A stretch of DNA of 32,908 bases from a phage: assembly GCA_021421665.1 (NCBI GenBank), contig GCA_021421665.1_4698.1, one strand, 5' to 3'. Below, piece after piece: positions 3,229-32,444 of the stretch. The position numbers and the translations under genes are program-made. The number at the start of each line of letters is the position of its first letter. Positions within the stretch are counted from its first letter, which is position 1. Under the pieces are notes generated by a model. It saw nothing but the letters and a program-made list of their open reading frames with translations, ran no database searches and was not told the DNA's origin.

Positions 3229-3326
3229 TGAAAACTGCTTTTATCATTCTTGGTATTATATTATTTATGGTAGTGTTCTGGGCTTTCTCTGGCATTGACC
3301 CAGATTGTGATGGTAACTACGACTGA
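3228..3326 (+). CDS. small hydrophobic protein (32 aa), putative membrane peptide
   Basis: ATG overlaps the polymerase stop (taATGa); MKTAFIILGIILFMVVFWAFSGIDPDCDGNYD has one predicted transmembrane stretch; below ORF-track cutoff. Confidence 0.3.
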   Translation: MKTAFIILGIILFMVVFWAFSGIDPDCDGNYD

Positions 3327-3385
3327 GTTATACTCAAGGTCACTTACTAGTGGCCTTTATGAATAACTTAAATGAGGCAAATACT

Positions 3386-3646
3386 ATGATTAAATACACT
3401 GCTTATCAATTAACTAAAGACCGTAAGATAGGTGTTGAGGTTAAAGCTTGGAATGAAGGACACATCACTGTAGTTATAGAGTGTCTCCAAGACAATGGTG
3501 TGATGCTAAGAAGCTACCGTTGCTTCACCAAATTACGCTGCAAGGATTTAACTGAAGAATTATTCTTACGTTGTATTGTTGAATCTATTAAACTTATTAG
3601 ACCCTACGCCAAGCAAGTTGTAGGTAATGTCACAGTAGTACATTGA
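3386..3646 (+). CDS. hypothetical protein (86 aa)
   Basis: ORF-track ORF 3350..3646; ATG at 3386 is preceded by GAGG at a suitable distance; in-frame alternatives at 3350 (GTG) and 3359 (ATG). Confidence 0.5.
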   Translation: MIKYTAYQLTKDRKIGVEVKAWNEGHITVVIECLQDNGVMLRSYRCFTKLRCKDLTEELFLRCIVESIKLIRPYAKQVVGNVTVVH

Positions 3647-3668
3647 TTTACTGGACACTATAGAAGGA
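3646..3668 (+). promoter_or_regulatory. SP6-type phage RNAP promoter ATTTACTGGACACTATAGAAGGA
   Basis: Matches SP6 promoter consensus ATTTAGGTGACACTATAGAAGAG at 19 of 23 positions; predicted +1 G at 3663; intergenic. Confidence 0.8.
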
Positions 3669-3732
3669 ATGCCTAGGTAATCTAGGTTTATAAGGTAGTA
3701 TAGGTAGTTAAGTAAATATAGGAGGTATAAAT

Positions 3733-4059
3733 ATGTCTATGGTGACTACTCTGGTATTCGTGGCTCAATACTTTCGTGGCTTATCTAATAAGTTTAAGCA
3801 GAAGGCTATCTTTGCAATTCAAGAGCGTATCAATAAAATTGAAGAAGAACAAGTAGATGTAGAAGAACATCGTAGTTCTCAAATGATTGACTGCCACAAC
3901 CGCTACTATGCATCTCGTGATGACCTTAATGCGCGTCAAGTCAAAGAGGTTGAAGAGATGCTGGCCGCCACCAGCAAGAGCGTGACAAACTGGAAGCTGA
4001 CTTCGAAGAGAACAAGGCACCCATCGCCCTTGTACATCAAGCCGCATCTGACAGCTTGA
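3733..4059 (+). CDS. hypothetical coiled-coil-like protein; C-terminal part may continue in the -1 frame to 4109
   Basis: AGGAGG SD before ATG 3733. A second frame is open 3954..4109, lacks a start of its own, encodes a coiled-coil-like peptide and ends at the SD of the next gene. Confidence 0.5.
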   Translation: MSMVTTLVFVAQYFRGLSNKFKQKAIFAIQERINKIEEEQVDVEEHRSSQMIDCHNRYYASRDDLNARQVKEVEEMLAATSKSVTNWKLTSKRTRHPSPLYIKPHLTA

Positions 4060-4415: not shown

Positions 4416-4436
4416 TTACTGGACACTATAGAACAA
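4414..4436 (+). promoter_or_regulatory. SP6-type phage RNAP promoter AATTACTGGACACTATAGAACAA
   Basis: Core GGACACTATAGAA conserved; predicted +1 G at 4431; intergenic. Confidence 0.75.
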
Positions 4437-4506
4437 TAGGACGTGGGTTTGTCAGAGACAGTAAATCCAAGGTGCTCAGTGAGCGTAAAGCCTAAGCACG
4501 TCCTAT
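4436..4506 (+). promoter_or_regulatory. large stem-loop at the 5' end of the transcript (RNase III-site-like)
   Basis: ataggacgtg (4436-4445) is a perfect 10-bp complement of cacgtcctat (4497-4506), enclosing 51 nt with sub-hairpins; further hairpins at 4531-4547 and 4551-4565; 188-nt untranslated leader before ATG 4625. Confidence 0.4.
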
Positions 4507-4624
4507 GATTGTAAAGTGTTTAACCGCCTTTTGTGCATCTTGCACAACCCGAATCAATCGGGCTTTCTAGTGAGTACATGCTTGTGCTCAGTACAAAGCT
4601 AACTGACAATAGGAGACTAAATAA

Positions 4625-8836: not shown

Positions 8837-8853
8837 TTGACACTATAGAACAA
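8831..8853 (+). promoter_or_regulatory. SP6-type phage RNAP promoter ATTTAGTTGACACTATAGAACAA
   Basis: Overlaps the stop codon of the preceding gene; predicted +1 G at 8848; a hairpin (aagggta...taccctt) follows within the first 30 nt of the transcript. Confidence 0.75.
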
Positions 8854-8903
8854 AGGGTAGGTGCTAGCTTACCCTTGATTGTATAGTGAATGGAGGAATT
8901 AAT

Positions 8904-14034: not shown

Positions 14035-14057
14035 ATTTACTGGACACTATAGAAGGG
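14035..14057 (+). promoter_or_regulatory. SP6-type phage RNAP promoter ATTTACTGGACACTATAGAAGGG upstream of the capsid gene
   Basis: Predicted +1 G at 14052; the transcript begins with hairpin gggaga-AATG-tctccc at 14055-14070. Confidence 0.8.
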
Positions 14058-14107
14058 AGAAATGTCTCCCTAAATTATCAATTTGATTTATAAGGAGATC
14101 ATAATAC

Positions 14108-15307
14108 ATGTCTACACCGAATACTCTAACTAACGTTGCTGTATCCGCATCCGGTGAGGTTGACAGCCTTCTTATTGAGAAGTTTAACGGCAAGGTTAAT
14201 GAGCAGTACATGAAAGGCGAGAACATTCTTTCCTATTTTGATGTACAGACTGTAACTGGTACAAACACGGTTAGCAATAAATACTTAGGTGAGACTGAAT
14301 TGCAGGTGTTAGCACCGGGTCAGTCTCCTAGTGCTACACCAACTCAGGCAGATAAAAACCAGTTGGTGATTGATACTACGGTTATTGCCCGTAACACTGT
14401 AGCTCATATCCATGATGTGCAGGGTGACATTGATAGCCTGAAACCTAAGCTGGCTATGAACCAAGCCAAACAACTGAAGCGACTGGAAGACCAGATGGCA
14501 ATCCAGCAGATGCTGTTAGGCGGTATCGCTAATACCAAAGCCACACGCACTAAGCCGCGTGTTAAAGGTCACGGTTTCTCTATCAACGTTAACATCACCG
14601 AGAGTGAAGCACTTTCTAACCCTCAGTATGTTATGGCAGCAGTGGAGTACGCTCTGGAACAACAGCTTGAGCAGGAAGTAGATATCTCTGATGTGGCTAT
14701 CCTGATGCCGTGGAAGTTCTTCAATGCGCTGCGTGATGCAGACCGTATTGTAGATAAGACTTACACCATTAGTCAGTCAGGCAGCACGGTACAAGGGTTT
14801 GTATTGTCTTCTTACAATTGCCCTGTTATCCCGTCTAACCGTTTCCCTTCTTTTGCAGGGAGTGCACCTCACCACCTGTTATCTAACGCAGATAACGGGT
14901 ATCGCTATGACCCGACAGCAGAAATGAATGGTGCAGTTGCTGTACTGTTTACAGCGGATGCACTGTTGGTTGGTCGCACCATTGATGTAACTGGTGATAT
15001 CTTCTATGAGAAGAAAGAGAAGACTTACTACATCGATACCTTTATGGCAGAAGGTGCGATCCCTGACCGCTGGGAGGCTGTGTCTGTGGTTACAACCAAA
15101 CGCAACGCCAGTGGTGTTGCTGAAGGTGCAGGCACTGACCACGCTATTGTCCTGTCTCGTGCACAGCGTAAGGCGGTTTATGTCAAGAGCGCTAACCCGG
15201 CAGGTGCTTACGCTGCCTCTAGCCTGCAAGCGGAAGACTTGGTTGCTGCTGTACGTGCTGTAATGGCAAATGACATTAAGCCGACTGCAATGAAACCTGC
15301 TGAGTAA
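14108..15307 (+). CDS. major capsid protein (T7 gp10-like)
   Basis: 399-aa ORF with AAGGAGA SD, own promoter and a terminator-like hairpin downstream; position after scaffold. Confidence 0.88.
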   Translation: MSTPNTLTNVAVSASGEVDSLLIEKFNGKVNEQYMKGENILSYFDVQTVTGTNTVSNKYLGETELQVLAPGQSPSATPTQADKNQLVIDTTVIARNTVAHIHDVQGDIDSLKPKLAMNQAKQLKRLEDQMAIQQMLLGGIANTKATRTKPRVKGHGFSINVNITESEALSNPQYVMAAVEYALEQQLEQEVDISDVAILMPWKFFNALRDADRIVDKTYTISQSGSTVQGFVLSSYNCPVIPSNRFPSFAGSAPHHLLSNADNGYRYDPTAEMNGAVAVLFTADALLVGRTIDVTGDIFYEKKEKTYYIDTFMAEGAIPDRWEAVSVVTTKRNASGVAEGAGTDHAIVLSRAQRKAVYVKSANPAGAYAASSLQAEDLVAAVRAVMANDIKPTAMKPAE

Positions 15308-25200: not shown

Positions 25201-25430
25201 TGCAATCCCGTTATGAGGCTGGCTTTCAGACTAAGGGTTTGATAGACCAAATACCATTAGTAGGTGTTGGTCAAGATGCATACCGTTTAGCAGATTCTAT
25301 AACTAAGTATGCAGAGGGTGATACAGATGGTGTAGATGTAGCACGTAGAGTTTTACGCTTAGTGCCACTGACTAATGTAATAGGTGTCCAAAACGCATTG
25401 CGTTATGGCTTAGATGAACTGGAGGACTGA
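22245..25430 (+). CDS. large internal virion / core protein (gp16-like)
   Basis: 1061 aa, largest gene of the block; GGAGG SD; Gly/Ala-rich segment suggests a membrane-interacting region; assignment by size and position. Confidence 0.75.
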   Translation: MEQDIKTNWAGYVQSTPEPFSIEAAPVSAPTIRQRNELQEQVLEAKADADILGAVGAAFQNEWLAFGGKRWYDRATADFPPQPDFEIQPDRREALRFKYGTDMMQKIIEGVRSEDELNFRIQNADDDLERNKRIAQAGWVGSVATIGAAVLDPVGWVASIPTGGAAKVGLVGRAVRGAVAAGVSNAAIESVLVQGDMTRDLDDIMVALGSGMAMGGVIGAVARGRATKLSEQGDDRAASVVRSADAGDRYVRAVADDSIGAMRVKGAEVLTEGAFDIPSKGEDLLKTLQREGNAIDMTPRRWAGTMSALGTVVHSSQDASIRGLGARLFESPQGLGMQKASASLMQNTNLNRLKSADMNRFNDGFDLWLKENNINPVAGHTNSHYIQQYNEKVWEAVRIGMDESTPKSIRMAAEGQQTMYREALALRQRSGEAGFEKVKADNKYMPDIFDSMKARSQFAMHDKEDIIELFSRAYQNGARKIPKEAADEIARAQVNRVADATLTGRLSFEKAMSGQTKAEYEAIMRKAGFSDEEIEKMVEALDNKETRDNISNRAKMSLGLDVTQEYNGIRMRDFMNTNVEELTDNYMKEAAGGAALARQGFSTYQAALNAIDLVERNARNAAKDSKASLALDEEIRQMREGIRLIMGKSIDADPQALSTKMMRRGRDITGVLRLGQMGFAQLGELANFMGEFGVAATTLALGKQFRFTSKALRNGDGFFRDKNLAEVERMVGYIGEDNWLTTKGARPDEFGDVTTVRGMMAHFDQSMNSIRRAQTNLSLFRMAQGSLERMTNRQIALSFIDHLEGKKVIPQKKLEELGLTQEFMSSLQKHYDANSKGSGLLGFDTMPYAMGETLANAIRRKSGLIIQRNFIGDEGIWMNKALGKTFAQLKSFSLVSGEKQFGRGIRHDKIGLAKKTAFGFALGSMVYAAKAYVNSIGREDQDEYLEEKLSPKGLAFGAMGMMSTTAVFSLGGDFLGGLGVLPSELVQSRYEAGFQTKGLIDQIPLVGVGQDAYRLADSITKYAEGDTDGVDVARRVLRLVPLTNVIGVQNALRYGLDELED

Positions 25431-26404
25431 TGGGTTATACTTTCACAGAACACACAGCCAACGGTACGCAAGTGACTTATCCTTTTAGGTTTGCTGGTAG
25501 GGATAAGGGTTATCTTCGTGCCTCAGATGTAAGAGTGGATACTCTTCAAGGTGATACTTGGACTAAGGTCACATCTGGCTGGCAACTAACTGGTACAAAC
25601 CAGATTACTTTTGATGTAGCACCAGCAGCAGGTTTGAAGATTCGTATTCGAAGGGAAGTACCAAAAGAGAACCCATATGCAGAGTTTGACCGTGGTGTTA
25701 CCCTTGATATGAAATCTTTGAATGGTTCCTTTATTCATAACCTAGAGGCAACCCAAGAACTTCTAGATGGGTTTTACCCTGAAGGGTACTACATCAAACA
25801 GAATGTATCATGGGGCGGTAATAAGATTACAGACCTAGCAGATGGTACAGCACCAAATGATGCAGTGAATAAAGGGCAGCTTGACTCCATTGATAAGAAA
25901 CACACAGACTGGAATAAGACGCAAGATGAGCAGATTGATGGTATCATTCGTAGCTTCGTCAGCAACGTATCCCACCGTTCTTTACCTTGGACCTATTCAG
26001 CAGTAGGTGGTGAAGATAAGGTAAAACCTCCTTTCTTCTTCCAAGCAGCACTAGTGTGGCGCGACGGTGTATATCAGGATGAGCAAGCTGGTGCTTTTGA
26101 AATCAGAGATAATACTATATTTCTAGCTAAGCCTTTGCTTAGAAAAGGTGAGCGCGTGTCTGTTCTCCTTGGCTCTCGTGTAGCAGTACCAGACAAAGGT
26201 GAGGTTCTCCAGCTTGAGTTCAACACAGTGGCAGGCTATACGGAGATAAATCTAGGTATGCGTGTATCAGAGGTGTCTGTCTTTCTTGATGGGCTTCTCC
26301 AATCTCTAGGCTCTTATAAGCTTATAGATGACAATAAGTTGGTATTTAGTGAGCCACTACCAGATTGCACCGTACTGGTTCAAGTTAAATCTGATACAAA
26401 GTAG
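25430..26404 (+). CDS. tail fiber/tailspike adaptor protein (T7 gp17 N-terminal-domain-like)
   Basis: 324 aa; N-terminus TANGTQVTYPFRFAGRDKGYLRASDVRV resembles the T7 gp17 N-terminal virion-attachment region; no long receptor-binding domain. Confidence 0.7.
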   Translation: MGYTFTEHTANGTQVTYPFRFAGRDKGYLRASDVRVDTLQGDTWTKVTSGWQLTGTNQITFDVAPAAGLKIRIRREVPKENPYAEFDRGVTLDMKSLNGSFIHNLEATQELLDGFYPEGYYIKQNVSWGGNKITDLADGTAPNDAVNKGQLDSIDKKHTDWNKTQDEQIDGIIRSFVSNVSHRSLPWTYSAVGGEDKVKPPFFFQAALVWRDGVYQDEQAGAFEIRDNTIFLAKPLLRKGERVSVLLGSRVAVPDKGEVLQLEFNTVAGYTEINLGMRVSEVSVFLDGLLQSLGSYKLIDDNKLVFSEPLPDCTVLVQVKSDTK

Positions 26405-26415
26405 GAGGTGTATTT

Positions 26416-26610
26416 GTGGTAGACTCAGATATCATCAATGATACGCTGAAGTGGGTTCCGGGTGGTATTGTAACCAGTACAACCCTCTTAGGTATCAGTT
26501 GGGAAAACTGGGTTTACATCTTAACCGCAATCTATACTATGTTGCAGATTGGGGAATGGGTATGGACCCGAGTTATAGGATGGAGGGAGAAGCGTGAGCG
26601 TACACAATAA
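26416..26610 (+). CDS. holin (T7 gp17.5-like)
   Basis: GTG start 7 nt after AGGAGG; 64 aa, one transmembrane segment; SWENWVYILTAIYTMLQIGEWV resembles recalled T7 gp17.5 SLNEWFYVAAIAYTVVQIGAKV. Confidence 0.8.
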   Translation: MVDSDIINDTLKWVPGGIVTSTTLLGISWENWVYILTAIYTMLQIGEWVWTRVIGWREKRERTQ

Positions 26611-26896
26611 ACATGCAGCTACAGAGGATGAGGTTGGCATTCTGCATGGTGCTATTACCAAAATCTTCAATAAGAAAGCACAGGCTATACTGGACACTAT
26701 AGAAGAAGACCCAGATGCAGCACTGCATTTAGTGTCTGGTAAAGACATTGGTGCTATGTGCAAATGGGTTCTTGATAATGGTATTACCGCTACACCTGCT
26801 GCACAGCAGGAAGAGTCCAAGTTGTCTAAGCGCCTCAAGGCTATCCGAGAGGCATCTAGTGGTAAGATTATTCAGTTTACAAAAGAGGACAATTAA
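26594..26896 (+). CDS. terminase small subunit (gp18-like)
   Basis: 100 aa, GTG start after GGAGGGAG, immediately upstream of the large terminase; positional assignment. Confidence 0.65.
   Translation: MSVHNKHAATEDEVGILHGAITKIFNKKAQAILDTIEEDPDAALHLVSGKDIGAMCKWVLDNGITATPAAQQEESKLSKRLKAIREASSGKIIQFTKEDN
26685..26707 (+). promoter_or_regulatory. intragenic SP6-promoter-like sequence CTATACTGGACACTATAGAAGAA
   Basis: Core CTGGACACTATAGAAGA is intact but the two upstream positions differ from all intergenic copies; lies inside the small terminase coding sequence. Confidence 0.35.
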
Positions 26897-28794
26897 TGGC
26901 TAAGGCAAGAGAATCACAAGCGGAGGCTCTTGCCAGATGGGAGATGCTACAGGAGTTACAGCAGACCTTTCCTTACACAGCGGAAGGTTTGCTTCTCTTT
27001 GCAGATACAGTTATTCATAATCTGATTGCAGGCAACCCTCATCTGATTCGTATGCAGGCCGATATCTTAAAGTTCCTATTCTATGGGCACAAGTATCGAC
27101 TCATCGAAGCGCCTCGTGGTATCGCTAAGACAACACTCTCAGCAATCTATACAGTCTTCCGTATCATCCATGAACCACATAAGCGTATCATGGTTGTATC
27201 CCAAAATGCCAAGCGAGCAGAGGAAATCGCCGGTTGGGTAGTTAAAATATTCCGTGGCCTAGACTTCCTTGAGTTTATGCTACCTGACATATACGCTGGA
27301 GATCGTGCATCCGTCAAAGCCTTTGAGATTCACTACACGTTACGCGGCAGTGATAAGTCGCCTTCTGTGTCCTGTTATTCTATTGAAGCAGGTATGCAGG
27401 GTGCTCGTGCGGATATTATCCTAGCAGATGACGTAGAGTCTATGCAGAATGCTCGTACAGCAGCAGGTCGAGCCTTACTTGAGGAATTAACCAAGGAGTT
27501 TGAATCTATCAACCAGTTTGGTGATATCATTTATCTTGGTACACCTCAGAACGTAAACTCTATCTACAACAACCTACCTGCTCGCGGCTACTCTGTTCGC
27601 ATCTGGACTGCACGTTACCCTTCGGTGGAGCAAGAGCAATGCTATAGTGACTTCCTTGCACCTATGATTGTGCAGGATATGAAGGACAACCCAGCACTTC
27701 GCTCAGGTTATGGCTTGGATGGCAACAGTGGTGCACCTTGTGCCCCTGAAATGTACGATGATGACGTCCTGATTGAGAAGGAAATATCGCAAGGTGCTGC
27801 TAAGTTCCAGCTCCAATTCATGCTTAACACTCGCATGATGGATGCAGACCGCTATCCTCTACGTCTGAATAACCTCATCTTCACCTCATTTGGCACAGAG
27901 GAAGTCCCTGTGATGCCTACATGGAGTAATGACTCTATTAACATCATTGGAGATGCACCTAAGTATGGCAATAAACCTACAGACTTCATGTATCGACCTG
28001 TTGCCAGACCATATGAATGGGGTGCTGTTACCCGTAAGATTATGTATATCGACCCGGCGGGTGGCGGTAAGAATGGGGACGAAACGGGTGTAGCGATTGT
28101 CTTCCTGCATGGCACATTCATTTACGTGTATCAGTGCTTCGGAGTACCGGGCGGATACCGTGAATCGTCTCTGAATCGCATTGTGCAGGCCGCAAAGCAG
28201 GCGGGTGTTAAAGAGGTATTCATTGAGAAAAACTTTGGTCATGGCGCGTTTGAGGCGGTAATTAAGCCATACTTTGAACGTGAGTGGCCCGTTACACTGG
28301 AAGAGGATTACGCTACCGGACAGAAAGAGTTGCGTATCATTGAGACGCTAGAGCCGCTCATGGCGGCGCACAGGCTCATCTTCAACGCTGAGATGGTCAA
28401 GTCTGACCTTGAGTCAGTACAGCACTATCCGCTTGAACTACGCATGTCCTATAGCCTTTTCAATCAAATGTCGAACATCACGATTGAGAAGAACAGCCTC
28501 CGGCACGATGACCGCTTAGACGCTCTGTACGGCGCTATACGGCAATTAACTTCTCAGATAGACTATGACGAGGTTACACGGATTAATCGCCTCAGAGCGC
28601 AGGAGATGCGCGATTATATCCAAGCTATGAATACACCTCACCTCCGCAGGGCAATGCTCTATGGAGATTATGGGACTGAGCGAAGAGTGACCAACACTTC
28701 TGTAGCGATGCAGCAGCGGGTTTATGGTCAGAACTACCGGAATAAGTCTTCCAATAGAAATACCATTTCTGCAAGGATTTCAAGGACTTATTAA
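26896..28794 (+). CDS. terminase large subunit (gp19-like)
   Basis: 632 aa; Walker A-like EAPRGIAKTT; acidic catalytic stretch ADIILADDVE; position after small terminase. Confidence 0.92.
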   Translation: MAKARESQAEALARWEMLQELQQTFPYTAEGLLLFADTVIHNLIAGNPHLIRMQADILKFLFYGHKYRLIEAPRGIAKTTLSAIYTVFRIIHEPHKRIMVVSQNAKRAEEIAGWVVKIFRGLDFLEFMLPDIYAGDRASVKAFEIHYTLRGSDKSPSVSCYSIEAGMQGARADIILADDVESMQNARTAAGRALLEELTKEFESINQFGDIIYLGTPQNVNSIYNNLPARGYSVRIWTARYPSVEQEQCYSDFLAPMIVQDMKDNPALRSGYGLDGNSGAPCAPEMYDDDVLIEKEISQGAAKFQLQFMLNTRMMDADRYPLRLNNLIFTSFGTEEVPVMPTWSNDSINIIGDAPKYGNKPTDFMYRPVARPYEWGAVTRKIMYIDPAGGGKNGDETGVAIVFLHGTFIYVYQCFGVPGGYRESSLNRIVQAAKQAGVKEVFIEKNFGHGAFEAVIKPYFEREWPVTLEEDYATGQKELRIIETLEPLMAAHRLIFNAEMVKSDLESVQHYPLELRMSYSLFNQMSNITIEKNSLRHDDRLDALYGAIRQLTSQIDYDEVTRINRLRAQEMRDYIQAMNTPHLRRAMLYGDYGTERRVTNTSVAMQQRVYGQNYRNKSSNRNTISARISRTY

Positions 28795-28815
28795 TTACTG
28801 GACACTATAGAAGGA
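28793..28815 (+). promoter_or_regulatory. SP6-type phage RNAP promoter AATTACTGGACACTATAGAAGGA
   Basis: Starts at the terminase stop; predicted +1 G at 28810; followed by a 130-nt AT-rich leader with TAGGT repeats and hairpin gggtgtac-TACT-gtacaccc (28887-28906). Confidence 0.8.
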
Positions 28816-28946
28816 AGGCCCAGAGAATAAGAGAAATAATAGGTAATATATAGGTTAACCTAGGTTATATAGGTATGCCTTAGTATGGGTGTACTACTGT
28901 ACACCCTATTCCTTCCTTACTATATTTACATAATAGGAGAGAGACA

Positions 28947-29225
28947 ATGGCTAATGATTATAGTAGTCAACCATTAACAGGTAAGTCTAAGAGAAAGCAG
29001 GTACAACCTGTAAGTGAAGCACTAATGCTTCCGGTAATCCCAAAAGAGGAAGCTAGTAAGAAAAGCAATGTTATTAATGATGCCACCAAATCAGGTAAAC
29101 AGAAAGGGGCAATGGTATGCCTTGAAGTGGACGATGGTGTATTGAAGATTGCTATCGCGGTTGATGGCAAAGAAGATTCAGAGTGGAAGTTAGTGACAGT
29201 GGAACCCACTGTTACCCCAGCTTAA
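28947..29225 (+). CDS. hypothetical protein (92 aa), paralog A of a tandem pair
   Basis: AGGAGAGAGA SD; shares the block SGKQKGAMV-LE--D--L-IA-A and C-terminal VTPA with the next gene. Confidence 0.6.
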   Translation: MANDYSSQPLTGKSKRKQVQPVSEALMLPVIPKEEASKKSNVINDATKSGKQKGAMVCLEVDDGVLKIAIAVDGKEDSEWKLVTVEPTVTPA

Positions 29226-29243
29226 GAAGAAGAGGAGGATTAC

Positions 29244-29528
29244 ATGGCTAAATATGGTGAAGGTTCTGTTACTGGTCAGGCTTTTCGAGTAAAAGCAGTA
29301 CAAACTATTGCAACGGCAATCCCTATGCCTGTTGTTAAAGAAGCAGACCTTAAGAGTAAAGATCACCCTATAAACATCAAACACCTGTCAGGTAAACAGA
29401 AAGGTGCAATGGTTGCTCTTGAGAAAGCGGACACAACCTTACATATTGCTGTTGCACGTGGTAGTGAACCAACAGACCCTTGGGATGTAACTGGTATGGA
29501 ATCGGACGCTGTTACTCCGGCAGGGTGA
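29244..29528 (+). CDS. hypothetical protein (94 aa), paralog B of a tandem pair
   Basis: GAGGAGGA SD; shares SGKQKGAMVALE and a VTPAG C-terminus with the preceding gene. Confidence 0.6.
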   Translation: MAKYGEGSVTGQAFRVKAVQTIATAIPMPVVKEADLKSKDHPINIKHLSGKQKGAMVALEKADTTLHIAVARGSEPTDPWDVTGMESDAVTPAG

Positions 29529-29532
29529 TACC

Positions 29533-29880
29533 ATGATGCTTAACAAATACTTCAAGCGTAAAGAGTTCGCTTGCCGTTGTGGATGCGGTACATCCACTGT
29601 TGATGCTGAGTTACTACAGGTAATCACAGATGTGCGTGAGCACTTTGGCGTACCTGTAGTTATCACCTCTGGTCATCGCTGCGTTAAGCACAATACCAGT
29701 GTAGGTGGGGCCAAGAACTCCATGCATCTTACAGGTAAGGCTGCTGATATTAAAGTATCTGGCATCTCACCTTCTGAAGTGCATAAGTATCTTACTGGCA
29801 AATACCAAGGTAAGTACGGCATTGGTAAGTATAATTCCTTCACGCACATTGATGTACGCGATGGGTGTGCACGATGGTAA
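29533..29880 (+). CDS. peptidase M15-family zinc peptidase, probable endolysin
   Basis: N-terminal EFACRCGCG and zinc-binding pattern SGHR...SMHLTGKAADI...THIDVRD; located in the lysis region. Confidence 0.75.
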   Translation: MMLNKYFKRKEFACRCGCGTSTVDAELLQVITDVREHFGVPVVITSGHRCVKHNTSVGGAKNSMHLTGKAADIKVSGISPSEVHKYLTGKYQGKYGIGKYNSFTHIDVRDGCARW

Positions 29881-29988: not shown

Positions 29989-30138
29989 ATGAAAAAGCTG
30001 TTTAAATCTAAGAAGGTGGTAGGTGCACTGATTGCACTGGTGATTGCCCTTGTTTCTGTAGGTCTTGGCGTAGACCTTGGTGAAGGTACTGAAGGTTCCG
30101 TAACTGACGTGGTATGCCAAGTAATCACCTGTGAATAA
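29989..30138 (+). CDS. small membrane protein (49 aa), lysis-cassette associated
   Basis: AAGGAG SD 6 nt before ATG 29989; one hydrophobic helix VVGALIALVIALVSVGLGV; below ORF-track cutoff. Confidence 0.4.
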   Translation: MKKLFKSKKVVGALIALVIALVSVGLGVDLGEGTEGSVTDVVCQVITCE

Positions 30139-30454: not shown

Positions 30455-30477
30455 ATTTAGGTGACACTATAGAAGAG
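30455..30477 (+). promoter_or_regulatory. canonical SP6 promoter ATTTAGGTGACACTATAGAAGAG upstream of the tailspike genes
   Basis: Exact 23 of 23 identity to the SP6 promoter as used in cloning vectors; predicted +1 G at 30472. Confidence 0.9.
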
Positions 30478-30548
30478 ATAGAGTGGCGATCATTTGGTCG
30501 CCTTTACTCAAGGTGCTCATGGTGGGCGCTTTAAGTAAAGGAGGAAAC

Positions 30549-32444
30549 ATGGCTCTAACTAGACTAACGTCAGCCTTGGTTAGTATCAAGTCTTCCGTGG
30601 TAGGTACTGTCAAGAGAACCATTGCTAACAAGTTTGACCTTGATTTATCTCTGGAGGATTTTGGTGCAGACCCAACTGGCAATACAGACTCTACCGCGGC
30701 TGTTATAGCAGCCCTTAGTAGTCGTAAACGTATAGTCCAAAAAGGTGGAGGTATCTACCGACTGGATGGCGCGGTTGTTGTCCCAACAGGTGATGTCCAT
30801 TTTGAAGGGGCAGGTATAGGCAAGACTGTCTTCAGATTCAACCACTTCACACAAGGTTTCAGACTTGGTGATGAGGCTGACTCAGGTAACAGGTATATTC
30901 ATGTCTTCCGCAAAGCCACTATTGAACGGCCAAACTATGCATCATACACTGGACAGATTAGCCCTAAATCTTTGTATATCTCAAACTCTAGAAACGGATT
31001 GGTAGAAGATATTGATCTGTCAGGTTCTATCGGTTACGGGATACAGTTTGATTATTCAGACACCTACGTAATGGTTCGCAGGTGTTATGTGCATGATCAT
31101 TTCGGTGGTAGCTCCGTGGCGGTTGGTACTGATGGTATCCACTTCTATCGAACAAAAGACTTCTGGGCTATTGAAAATACAGTGGCTCGTGTTGGTGACG
31201 ACGCAATCAGTTGTGGTACTTTTAACTTTGCCTACCCTGTGAGTAATGGTCATATCTTATTTAACAAGATATACAATACACAGGGCACCATCAAGATTTA
31301 CACCAAAGTATCTGGTGTTACAGTCAAGGGTAACTATATTGATGGGTCAGTACAGGGCGGTGTGTATATCACGAACGATGCAAACGCACCAGAAAACGCG
31401 GCTATTAATGACATTACAATAGAAGACAACAAGTTCTACAACATCTTCCCAAACGTGGAAACAAATATAGAGGCTGGACCTTTACGTATCCGCGGTTGGA
31501 AGGGTGGTGCTTGCTCTTTTAACAATATCATTTTCAAGGACAACTACTGCTCAAACACTTACGCTGGAATTAACTTTCTTGTTAACTCTGCCAACCAACG
31601 ACTCAGAAACCTCTATGTAGAGGGGAACATCTTCTTTGTTCAAGCCTTGGGTACAACAAACTCAAGATCTGCAATAATGCTACAGTGCTGTGATGAGAAC
31701 TTAGTTGTTCGCAATAATACCTTCAAAGATACATCTGGTGGTCTCTTGCAGATTGACGCTGTTGGTTCTGGTTTCACTGCAGAACCTTCATCCAATGGTA
31801 GGTTTACCATCACAGGCAACCAAGTGGAAGGATGGAACAAATCAGTAACGGTTGGTCGTAGTGCGCTACGCGGTATCTTCTTACGGCAAAACTTATATGA
31901 CTGCATTGTTGAGATAACCAATAACAAACTTCAATATCAGTACACTAGTGGCTCTGCCGCAAAAGGTCGTGCAGTTGAGACGGCTGGTGTTCACCCTGAT
32001 AGCAGGTTTGAGAACAACGTACTAGATGGTAATGTGTTGTTTAACTCAAACAATGGCGGATACTTTGGTTCAAACAAAACCATAGCTGACCTAACAAGTG
32101 CACCGGGGCCGCGCTCTGGCACACACCAGCGTGGTAGCTCTTTGAGGACAGAAGTACCTACAGCTACAAGGTACAACGAGTATCTGATAGTTAAATCTGG
32201 AACTCTTGATACTATTTCCGCAACAGTAACAATAGACTCTGGTTCATACTCAGGGACTATAACATCTGGCTCATTACTACCCGGTGTATATGTGACAGTC
32301 GCAGGGTTGTCTGATGTGTTACGTGTATTGCGTGTGGCTGGTAGCTCTGTGTTATTTGACTCAAAGGCATCAGCTACTGTAACAGATGCTGCAACAGTAA
32401 ACTCCAACCCAACATGGTTGGCCCGTTCATTAGTACCAGCATAG
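30549..32444 (+). CDS. tailspike protein 1 (631 aa), probable beta-helix capsule depolymerase
   Basis: AAAGGAGG SD before ATG 30549 (ORF-track start 30483 has none); N-terminal DFGADPTGNTD motif typical of pectate-lyase-fold tailspikes; repetitive Asn/Gly/Thr-rich beta-strand-like sequence. Confidence 0.8.
   Translation: MALTRLTSALVSIKSSVVGTVKRTIANKFDLDLSLEDFGADPTGNTDSTAAVIAALSSRKRIVQKGGGIYRLDGAVVVPTGDVHFEGAGIGKTVFRFNHFTQGFRLGDEADSGNRYIHVFRKATIERPNYASYTGQISPKSLYISNSRNGLVEDIDLSGSIGYGIQFDYSDTYVMVRRCYVHDHFGGSSVAVGTDGIHFYRTKDFWAIENTVARVGDDAISCGTFNFAYPVSNGHILFNKIYNTQGTIKIYTKVSGVTVKGNYIDGSVQGGVYITNDANAPENAAINDITIEDNKFYNIFPNVETNIEAGPLRIRGWKGGACSFNNIIFKDNYCSNTYAGINFLVNSANQRLRNLYVEGNIFFVQALGTTNSRSAIMLQCCDENLVVRNNTFKDTSGGLLQIDAVGSGFTAEPSSNGRFTITGNQVEGWNKSVTVGRSALRGIFLRQNLYDCIVEITNNKLQYQYTSGSAAKGRAVETAGVHPDSRFENNVLDGNVLFNSNNGGYFGSNKTIADLTSAPGPRSGTHQRGSSLRTEVPTATRYNEYLIVKSGTLDTISATVTIDSGSYSGTITSGSLLPGVYVTVAGLSDVLRVLRVAGSSVLFDSKASATVTDAATVNSNPTWLARSLVPA

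Follow-up and report, generated by a model that had tools for sequence, protein, structure and literature searches.

Two paralogous late proteins of a K1-5-like phage belong to a family of candidate virion-surface anchor domains

Two adjacent genes of a K1-5-like phage genome encode the paralogous proteins gp41 and gp42, of 92 and 94 amino acids. We give roughly even odds (a probability of about 0.5) to the reading that the domain of which each would consist is a virion-surface anchor or decoration module, and place about two thirds of that weight on the capsid. The first-pass annotation of this DNA held that function cannot be inferred from sequence. That is true of the two proteins taken alone, which have no match in a Pfam search and no relative in the PDB, but it no longer holds for the family, because the domain architectures and fusion partners of distant members make a role at the virion surface inferable.

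The gene pair is already known and has been sequenced many times, so that the sequence feature itself is not novel. The apparent novelty lies in the family of one-, two- and three-domain proteins to which the pair belongs, with fused pseudo-trimers and display fusions, in the functional prediction, and in the seeming absence of a solved structural relative. This would be a new family within a known kind, that of virion decoration or fibre-base proteins.

The gene pair and its neighbourhood

The window, by which we mean the whole 32,908-nucleotide stretch of phage DNA that was analysed, is on nucleotide identity a Vectrevirus (K1-5-like) genome, and the gene pair corresponds to K1-5 genes 41 and 42 (Table 1). 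Positions 28780-29540 share 92-95% DNA identity with many Vectrevirus genomes, K1-5, AAPEc6 and LL11 among them, and a nucleotide search finds 72 phage records with coverage of 80% or more of this region. In K1-5, the region spanning genes 40-42 is about 94% identical in nucleotides to that of the window, and position, promoter, leader and the presence of two copies are the same in the two phages. Direct orthologues of the pair are gp41 and gp42 of K1-5 and K1E, and gp41, gp42 and gp42.3 of SP6.

Table 1 Features of the window around the gene pair
Feature	Position	Strand	Basis or remark
gp37 tail adaptor	25430-26404		phrog_2710
Small terminase	26594-26896		
Large terminase (TerL), T7-type	26896-28794		
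SP6/K1-5-type single-subunit RNA polymerase promoter	28790..28815	+	core GGACACTATAGAAG at 28800-28813
Four TAGGT motifs in the 5' leader	28840..28875	+	4 copies within 60 nt, more densely clustered than elsewhere in the window
8-bp G+C-rich hairpin, GGGTGTAC-TACT-GTACACCC, then pyrimidine-rich tract	28887..28906	+	folding, terminator-like scan
gp41-type paralogue, 92 aa, base-only copy of the family domain	28947-29225	+	ORF list, phrog_2725
gp42-type paralogue, 94 aa, second base-only copy of the family domain	29244-29528	+	ORF list, phrog_2725
Peptidase_M15_3 endolysin	29533-29880		
Holin	29989-30138		
phrog_9219 ORF, 73 aa	30131-30352		no function assigned in PHROG
ORF with Rz-like spanin match	30144-30425		residues 28-93 only, against phrog_8971
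Tailspike-like ORF, 653 aa	30483-32444		

The pair occupies the conserved position of its family, directly between the large terminase gene and the M15 endolysin gene. It precedes the lysis genes, as had been stated before, with endolysin, holin and Rz-like spanin coming next. The corresponding order in K1-5 is gene 40 (large terminase), 41, 42, 43 (endolysin), 44, 45 and the K5 lyase tailspike. The module stands just downstream of a T7-type large terminase gene in K1-5, SP6, PP1, Era103, Vc1, ZK1, KL01 and 6939 and in six metagenomic contigs, and the gene order around it is the same in the first seven of these phages; in the metagenomic contig L015, an unrelated 179-aa reading frame lies between terminase and module.

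Both reading frames are present in the window, and the proposal that they arose by a tandem duplication and then diverged is borne out. BLASTP aligns gp41 with gp42 at 39% identity (35 of 90 residues; E = 4e-16), so that the significance of the shared block is far past chance in the pairwise alignment that had been suggested as a check. The shared core singled out earlier (P-V, IN, SGKQKGAMV, IA-A and W) and the VTPA C terminus turn out to be invariant or near-invariant columns once 33 diverse gp41-type and gp42-type orthologues are aligned. In this alignment, the near-invariant columns are T-G in the N-terminal arm, P29, N44, S-G-K-Q-K-G-A-M-V, A71, W80 and the C-terminal T-P.

Homologue searches yielded 104 clusters of orthologues for gp41 and 111 for gp42. 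Among 100 gp41-type and 109 gp42-type orthologues, conservation extends to both paralogues at 26 positions; at 12 others each paralogue has its own conserved residue, and 5 of these 12 lie in the N-terminal arm. This pattern indicates that selection acts on both proteins, that neither is decaying and that they now differ in function or binding site. Profile searches place both in phrog_2725 (E = 1.9e-38 over residues 1-92 of gp41 and 4e-44 over residues 1-93 of gp42), and our own family profile, A1, scores them at E ~4e-44 to 6e-44. PHROGs 32357 and 27324 are related groups of the same family. A search with a broader profile, A4, gave only already-known gp41 and gp42 orthologues among its best 120 matches.

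The two genes share a reading frame and are separated only by TAA and six sense codons (29223-29246). The same in-frame relation is found in K1-5, KAW1A4500 and PP1. Read-through from gp41 into gp42, which would give a two-domain protein recalling the fused forms described below, was considered and rejected because the relation is not conserved, being absent from SP6, Era103 and KL01; it may have arisen by chance.

Two further observations concern the genes downstream. The two reading frames that follow the holin gene overlap in different frames and may form an embedded or overlapping spanin arrangement, with starts that are putative. The 653-aa reading frame at the tailspike position, unlike all other structural proteins tested, matched no PHROG at an E-value cutoff of 1e-5, and may represent a receptor-binding or depolymerase module of an uncommon kind. 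The GTG listed as its start lies a few bases past a promoter at 30462-30475, so the ATG at 30549, behind AAGGAGG, is probably the true one.

Promoter and leader

The pair had been placed behind a promoter of its own, and this is supported by the core at 28800-28813, an exact 14-mer copy of the cores at 3653, 5699, 14042 and 26692. With up to 3 mismatches allowed, the promoter core matches 13 times in the window where 2.96 matches are expected, a count that 100 shuffled sequences never reached. The promoter and the large terminase stop codon overlap, and the core is exactly that of the promoter of the major capsid gene (14108-15307). In an alignment of leaders it is found at the same place in K1-5, KAW1A4500, P3a, SP6 and PP1. 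By analogy with the SP6 promoter, we take +1 to be G 28810. Both genes have good Shine-Dalgarno sequences, AGGAG at 28935-28939 for gp41 and GGAGG at 29234-29238 for gp42.

The description of the leader as long and structured survives in part. Its 140 nt as a whole fold no better than shuffled sequences (z=-1.13), which rules out a globally structured leader RNA, and what remains is one 8-bp hairpin. The leader consists of this single hairpin and a cluster of TAGGT repeats.

The hairpin could be a stabilizer of the leader, a processing site or a weak terminator. Its equivalent in phage KAW1A4500 is annotated as a putative terminator, and SP6, PP1 and Era103 seem, in an alignment read by eye, to have a hairpin of different sequence at the equivalent place. 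Inspection of the window, also by eye, places a G+C-rich hairpin about 10-40 nt past most of its phage promoters, with examples at 4421-4540, 8838-8880, 14042-14075 and 30462-30510; the one behind the capsid promoter contains GGGAGAAATGTCTCCC. Since hairpins lie behind most promoters, the one ahead of gp41 would be common to late transcripts here and not peculiar to the pair. The 5' stabilizing hairpin of the T7 gene 10 leader resembles these post-promoter hairpins.

Copies of TAGGT recur in the same leader of K1-5, SP6 and PP1, and at the equivalent position of Era103 (2762-2937 of the Era103 locus examined) there is a perfect tandem array, 27 bp x 6.5, that contains TAGGT. A second cluster in the window has three copies at 3674-3706, behind the promoter at 3653. 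An RNA-protein binding site, a translational enhancer and a processing signal are among the possible functions of these clusters. Directly behind that promoter and second cluster lies an early or middle gene of 108 aa (3733-4059) that matches phrog_7450, 'polysaccharide chain length determinant protein', a PHROG of the moron category (E=3.8e-40).

Family architectures and fusion partners

An exhaustive profile search with alignment A1 returned 241 family proteins, and 143 representatives of these were re-scanned with the profile to establish their architecture. A single domain of ~90 aa makes up 87 of the 143 representatives. About 40 carry three tandem domains in one chain of 260-300 aa; several chains that scored as having two domains are just as long, one of their copies being divergent. 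In about 14, an extension follows a single N-terminal domain, four combine a multi-domain chain with a C-terminal extension, and none of the 143 has more than three copies of the domain. The domain measures ~85 aa, and the (V/I)TP(A/T)G motif with which gp41 and gp42 end marks the domain boundaries in the fused proteins.

One fused three-domain protein is collinear with adjacent small genes, corresponding over domains 1-2 to those of Proteus phages and over domains 2-3 to those of PP1, which points to a fusion/fission relationship between the three-domain chain and the separate genes. In a rough neighbour-joining tree, whose long branches make it suggestive only, the domains of fused proteins group largely by position, and the long paralogue of KAW1A4500 and SP6 gp42.3 fall with the third-position domains. 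The fused genes follow a T7-type terminase gene in metagenomic contigs recognizable as Autographiviridae, and the 37.7-kb contig L015 has an Autographiviridae context. In three contigs, the fused gene is directly followed by a second gene that encodes an N-terminal family domain and an extension, with collagen repeats in one of them.

Copy number among related phages, another check that had been suggested, reaches three paralogues and extends across the Molineuxvirinae and other Autographiviridae. A tblastn search with gp42 found 340 places in 188 phage records, from phages of Escherichia, Klebsiella, Salmonella, Vibrio, Proteus, Erwinia, Pectobacterium, Pseudomonas and Aeromonas. Among the records examined in detail, K1-5, like the window, has two short genes, PP1 has three, and SP6 has genes 41 and 42 plus a truncated 42.3. 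Two short genes and one long one are present in KAW1A4500, Raoultella phage P3a and Klebsiella phage ZK1, one short and one long in Era103, Vibrio phage Vc1 and Klebsiella phage KL01, and one short gene in Klebsiella phage 6939. These sets indicate that the duplication is old and that the set has been repeatedly remodelled.

The truncated family member of SP6, gp42.3 (81 aa; 3298-3543 of the SP6 locus examined), matches the family at E=1e-10. Its N terminus is like that of the long third paralogue of KAW1A4500 and P3a, and ~190 nt of non-coding sequence separate it from gene 43. It looks like the decaying remnant of a long, extension-bearing paralogue.

An AlphaFold2 model of gp42, built with alignment A1, has a pLDDT of 68 and predicts a small β core with two short helices; its N-terminal arm is disordered in the model yet conserved in sequence. 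For the three-domain protein P0219, the AlphaFold2 model (alignment A2) reaches a pLDDT of 86 and a pTM of 0.82, a value that suggests three domains packed into one body and not arranged as beads on a string. From the pTM and the domain count we deduce a possible pseudo-threefold geometry.

Sequence searches of the PDB with gp41, gp42, profiles A1 and A4 and the long paralogues gave chance-level matches to a plexin (E=0.014), an aldehyde dehydrogenase and an S-layer protein. The exception was the fibre part of Era103 gp48, which has weak similarity to the phi29 head fibre. Foldseek against BFVD matched only family members and uncharacterized phage proteins, and we found no likeness to the known decoration folds gpD/β-tulip, OB-fold Dec, Ig-like Hoc, Soc or α-claw.

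The extensions carried by the longer family members are more informative, and every fusion partner that can be identified is a virion-surface module, in most cases a trimeric one. In Klebsiella phage protein ZK1_06 and in P0284, the extension consists of Ig_3/I-set domains, with matches to 'Hoc-like head decoration' PHROGs as well. ORF2 of Klebsiella phage KL01 carries the family domain (E=7e-14) and matches the Pfam family Phage_head_fibr (PF11133) at 33.3 bits, above the gathering cutoff of 24.6. Era103 gp48 matches head-fibre PHROGs and phi29 gp8.5 (PDB 3qc7; E=2e-4). Collagen triple-helix repeats occur in the extension of the gene that adjoins a fused triple, and the Sf6 needle knob PF16532 is present in P0283 and P0338 (E=1.7e-30 and 5e-43). 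Several further extensions match PHROGs to which no function is assigned. Three of these partners (collagen, the needle knob and the phi29 fibre) are obligately trimeric. Without exception the family domain precedes the extension, and in phage fibres the N terminus is the particle-proximal end.

The C-terminal segments of KL01 ORF2 and Era103 gp48 are thus like the phi29 head fibre gp8.5 (PF11133; PDB 3qc7, 6qvk), and the long paralogues would share its logic of an N-terminal base on the particle from which a trimeric fibre points outward. The similarity to the head-fibre profile belongs to the long paralogues of other phages; gp41 and gp42 themselves did not match PF11133 in the Pfam search.

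A candidate surface role and its alternatives

In the mechanism that we propose, gp41 and gp42 would be expressed as late genes from their own phage promoter and strong ribosome-binding sites, each as one ~85-residue, mostly β domain with a conserved extended N-terminal arm and a (V/I)TP(A/G) end. The domain would form trimers and serve as an anchor at the outer surface of the virion, with threefold or quasi-threefold positions of the capsid as the likeliest sites. Fibre-less gp41 and gp42 might serve there as decoration or cement studs, in the form of two kinds of homotrimer or of mixed heterotrimers. In relatives, the same base in a further paralogue would display an Ig-like domain, a head-fibre segment, a collagen stalk or a knob. 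We infer trimerization, presence in the virion, location on the capsid over the tail, and a stabilizing or adhesive role. The limit of three domains, the compact P0219 model and the trimeric partners (collagen and needle knob) bear on the trimer indirectly. Because genomes have one, two or three base-only copies, a fixed A:B:C heterotrimer cannot be general.

Three considerations favour the capsid. The specifically annotated partners are of head type; the gp37 adaptor and the tailspikes already fill the known tail sites of SP6/K1-5 phages; and a high copy number is consistent with a promoter like that of the capsid gene and with strong ribosome-binding sites. In phage UAB_Phi78, the gene pair is K1E-like and the capsid and tail proteins are SP6-like (PMC4837284), a mosaic that argues against tight co-evolution with any one structural partner and implies that any surface bound by the pair must be conserved across these phages.

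Small, abundant, late accessory proteins on the outside of an HK97-fold capsid, such as the trimeric lambda gpD and phage L Dec and the Ig-like T4 Hoc and P2_50 of phage Peru-2, are the kind of protein that we propose gp41 and gp42 to be. SP6/K1-5-type phages are usually drawn with bare T7-like heads. We tentatively suggest, as a possibility held less firmly than a surface role as such, that these heads bear an unseen decoration made of a new small β fold arranged in threes, with gp41 and gp42 at non-equivalent threefold sites of a T=7 capsid. The same fold would then exist in three forms: paralogous subunits from separate genes, a pseudo-trimer chain of three domains, and a base displaying Ig, head-fibre, collagen or knob modules.

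Two T7-like phages provide analogues of such a decoration. In PhiM1, separate genes encode a short and a long decoration protein with a common capsid-binding motif; the short protein consists of this motif only and the long one adds an outward arm (PMC11440229). The PhiM1 proteins are α-helical homodimers at twofold axes, whereas the gp41/gp42 family is predicted to be mostly β and to assemble in threes, and we found no homology between them. Vibrio phage Peru-2 has an abundant capsid decoration protein of ~12 kDa, identified by proteomics of CsCl-purified virions and by cryo-EM (PMC13320782). P2_50 of Peru-2 was rejected as an unproven homologue: it has an Ig-like fold and forms pentamers (PMC13320782), and no PDB match links it to the family.

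A location on the tail is rather unlikely in our estimation. The domain would then anchor studs or side fibres at the adaptor, nozzle or tailspike-adaptor region, with gp41 and gp42 as fibre-less fillers. The gene pair does lie in the right-end block together with the tailspike gene, and the long paralogues ZK1_06 and that of Marinomonas phage CPP1m are annotated as 'tail protein' or 'tail fiber protein', but these labels are generic annotation transfers from Ig domains. Collagen, needle knobs and Ig domains are found in tail proteins too, and tail PHROGs are among the matches, so these partners do not separate capsid from tail; those with a specific annotation, namely the PF11133 head fibre and the Hoc-like head decoration, are head-type. 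The attachment sites of an SP6/K1-5-type tail are, moreover, presumably occupied by gp37 and the tailspikes, as we take to be the case in the K1E, K1-5 and SP6 tail.

We also consider it quite unlikely that gp41 and gp42 are non-structural late proteins that are not kept in the virion, acting instead as a chaperone or scaffold for a tailspike or fibre or as a regulator of the lysis cassette. The genes do sit between those for packaging and lysis. In addition, the literature that we searched contains no purified-virion proteomics, cryo-EM or other structure, or functional work on gp41 and gp42 of K1-5 or SP6 or on their relatives, and thus offers no virion-proteomics support for incorporation. 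However, the known intramolecular chaperones of phage spikes are C-terminal and the family domain is always N-terminal, and three-domain fusions and display partners such as Ig or knob would be hard to explain in a chaperone or a lysis regulator. Nor, by eye, is a hydrophobic stretch of membrane-spanning type present in either sequence. In KL01, the long paralogue gave four unique LC-MS/MS peptides in a crude phage supernatant and the short paralogue, ORF3, gave none, as would suit a short protein left out of the particle (PMC10916049). The same supernatant also held replication and lysis proteins (PMC10916049), and because it was unpurified we do not count the detection of the long paralogue as evidence of a place in the virion.

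Should gp41 and gp42 be surface studs or fibre bases, the consequences would reach beyond the window, since the genes are conserved in model and therapeutic phages that include SP6, K1-5, K1E and many relatives infecting Klebsiella, Proteus, Erwinia and Vibrio. Since Ig, collagen, knob and head-fibre modules are already swapped on the same base in nature, the domain would offer a natural and modular platform for display. It would also be a determinant of particle stability or secondary adhesion, of relevance to phage therapy, and its fold would be one that is absent from the structural catalogue of decoration proteins.

The name under which the proteins are filed suggests something quite different. 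RefSeq, PHROGs (PHROG 2725) and several papers label gp41 and gp42 'acetyl-CoA acetyltransferase', and the genome table of UAB_Phi78 gives this function as 'putative' (PMC4837284). We judge the label to be spurious; it was probably spread by annotation transfer, and dropping it is the minimum correction that the present analysis calls for. There is next to no chance that the two proteins are acetyl-CoA acetyltransferases (thiolases) or, as in the annotation of phage VEc3, Sema/plexin-like: apart from database labels, the basis for either is one weak phmmer match between gp41 and the sema domain of plexin-A2 (45 residues; E=0.014) that neither gp42 nor the family profile reproduces, thiolases are roughly 390 aa long against 92-94 aa here, thiolase Pfam domains were not matched at E up to 1, and no thiolase is among the matches of the PDB profile searches. 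The 'Sema domain' label of VEc3 probably traces to the same chance-level plexin match.
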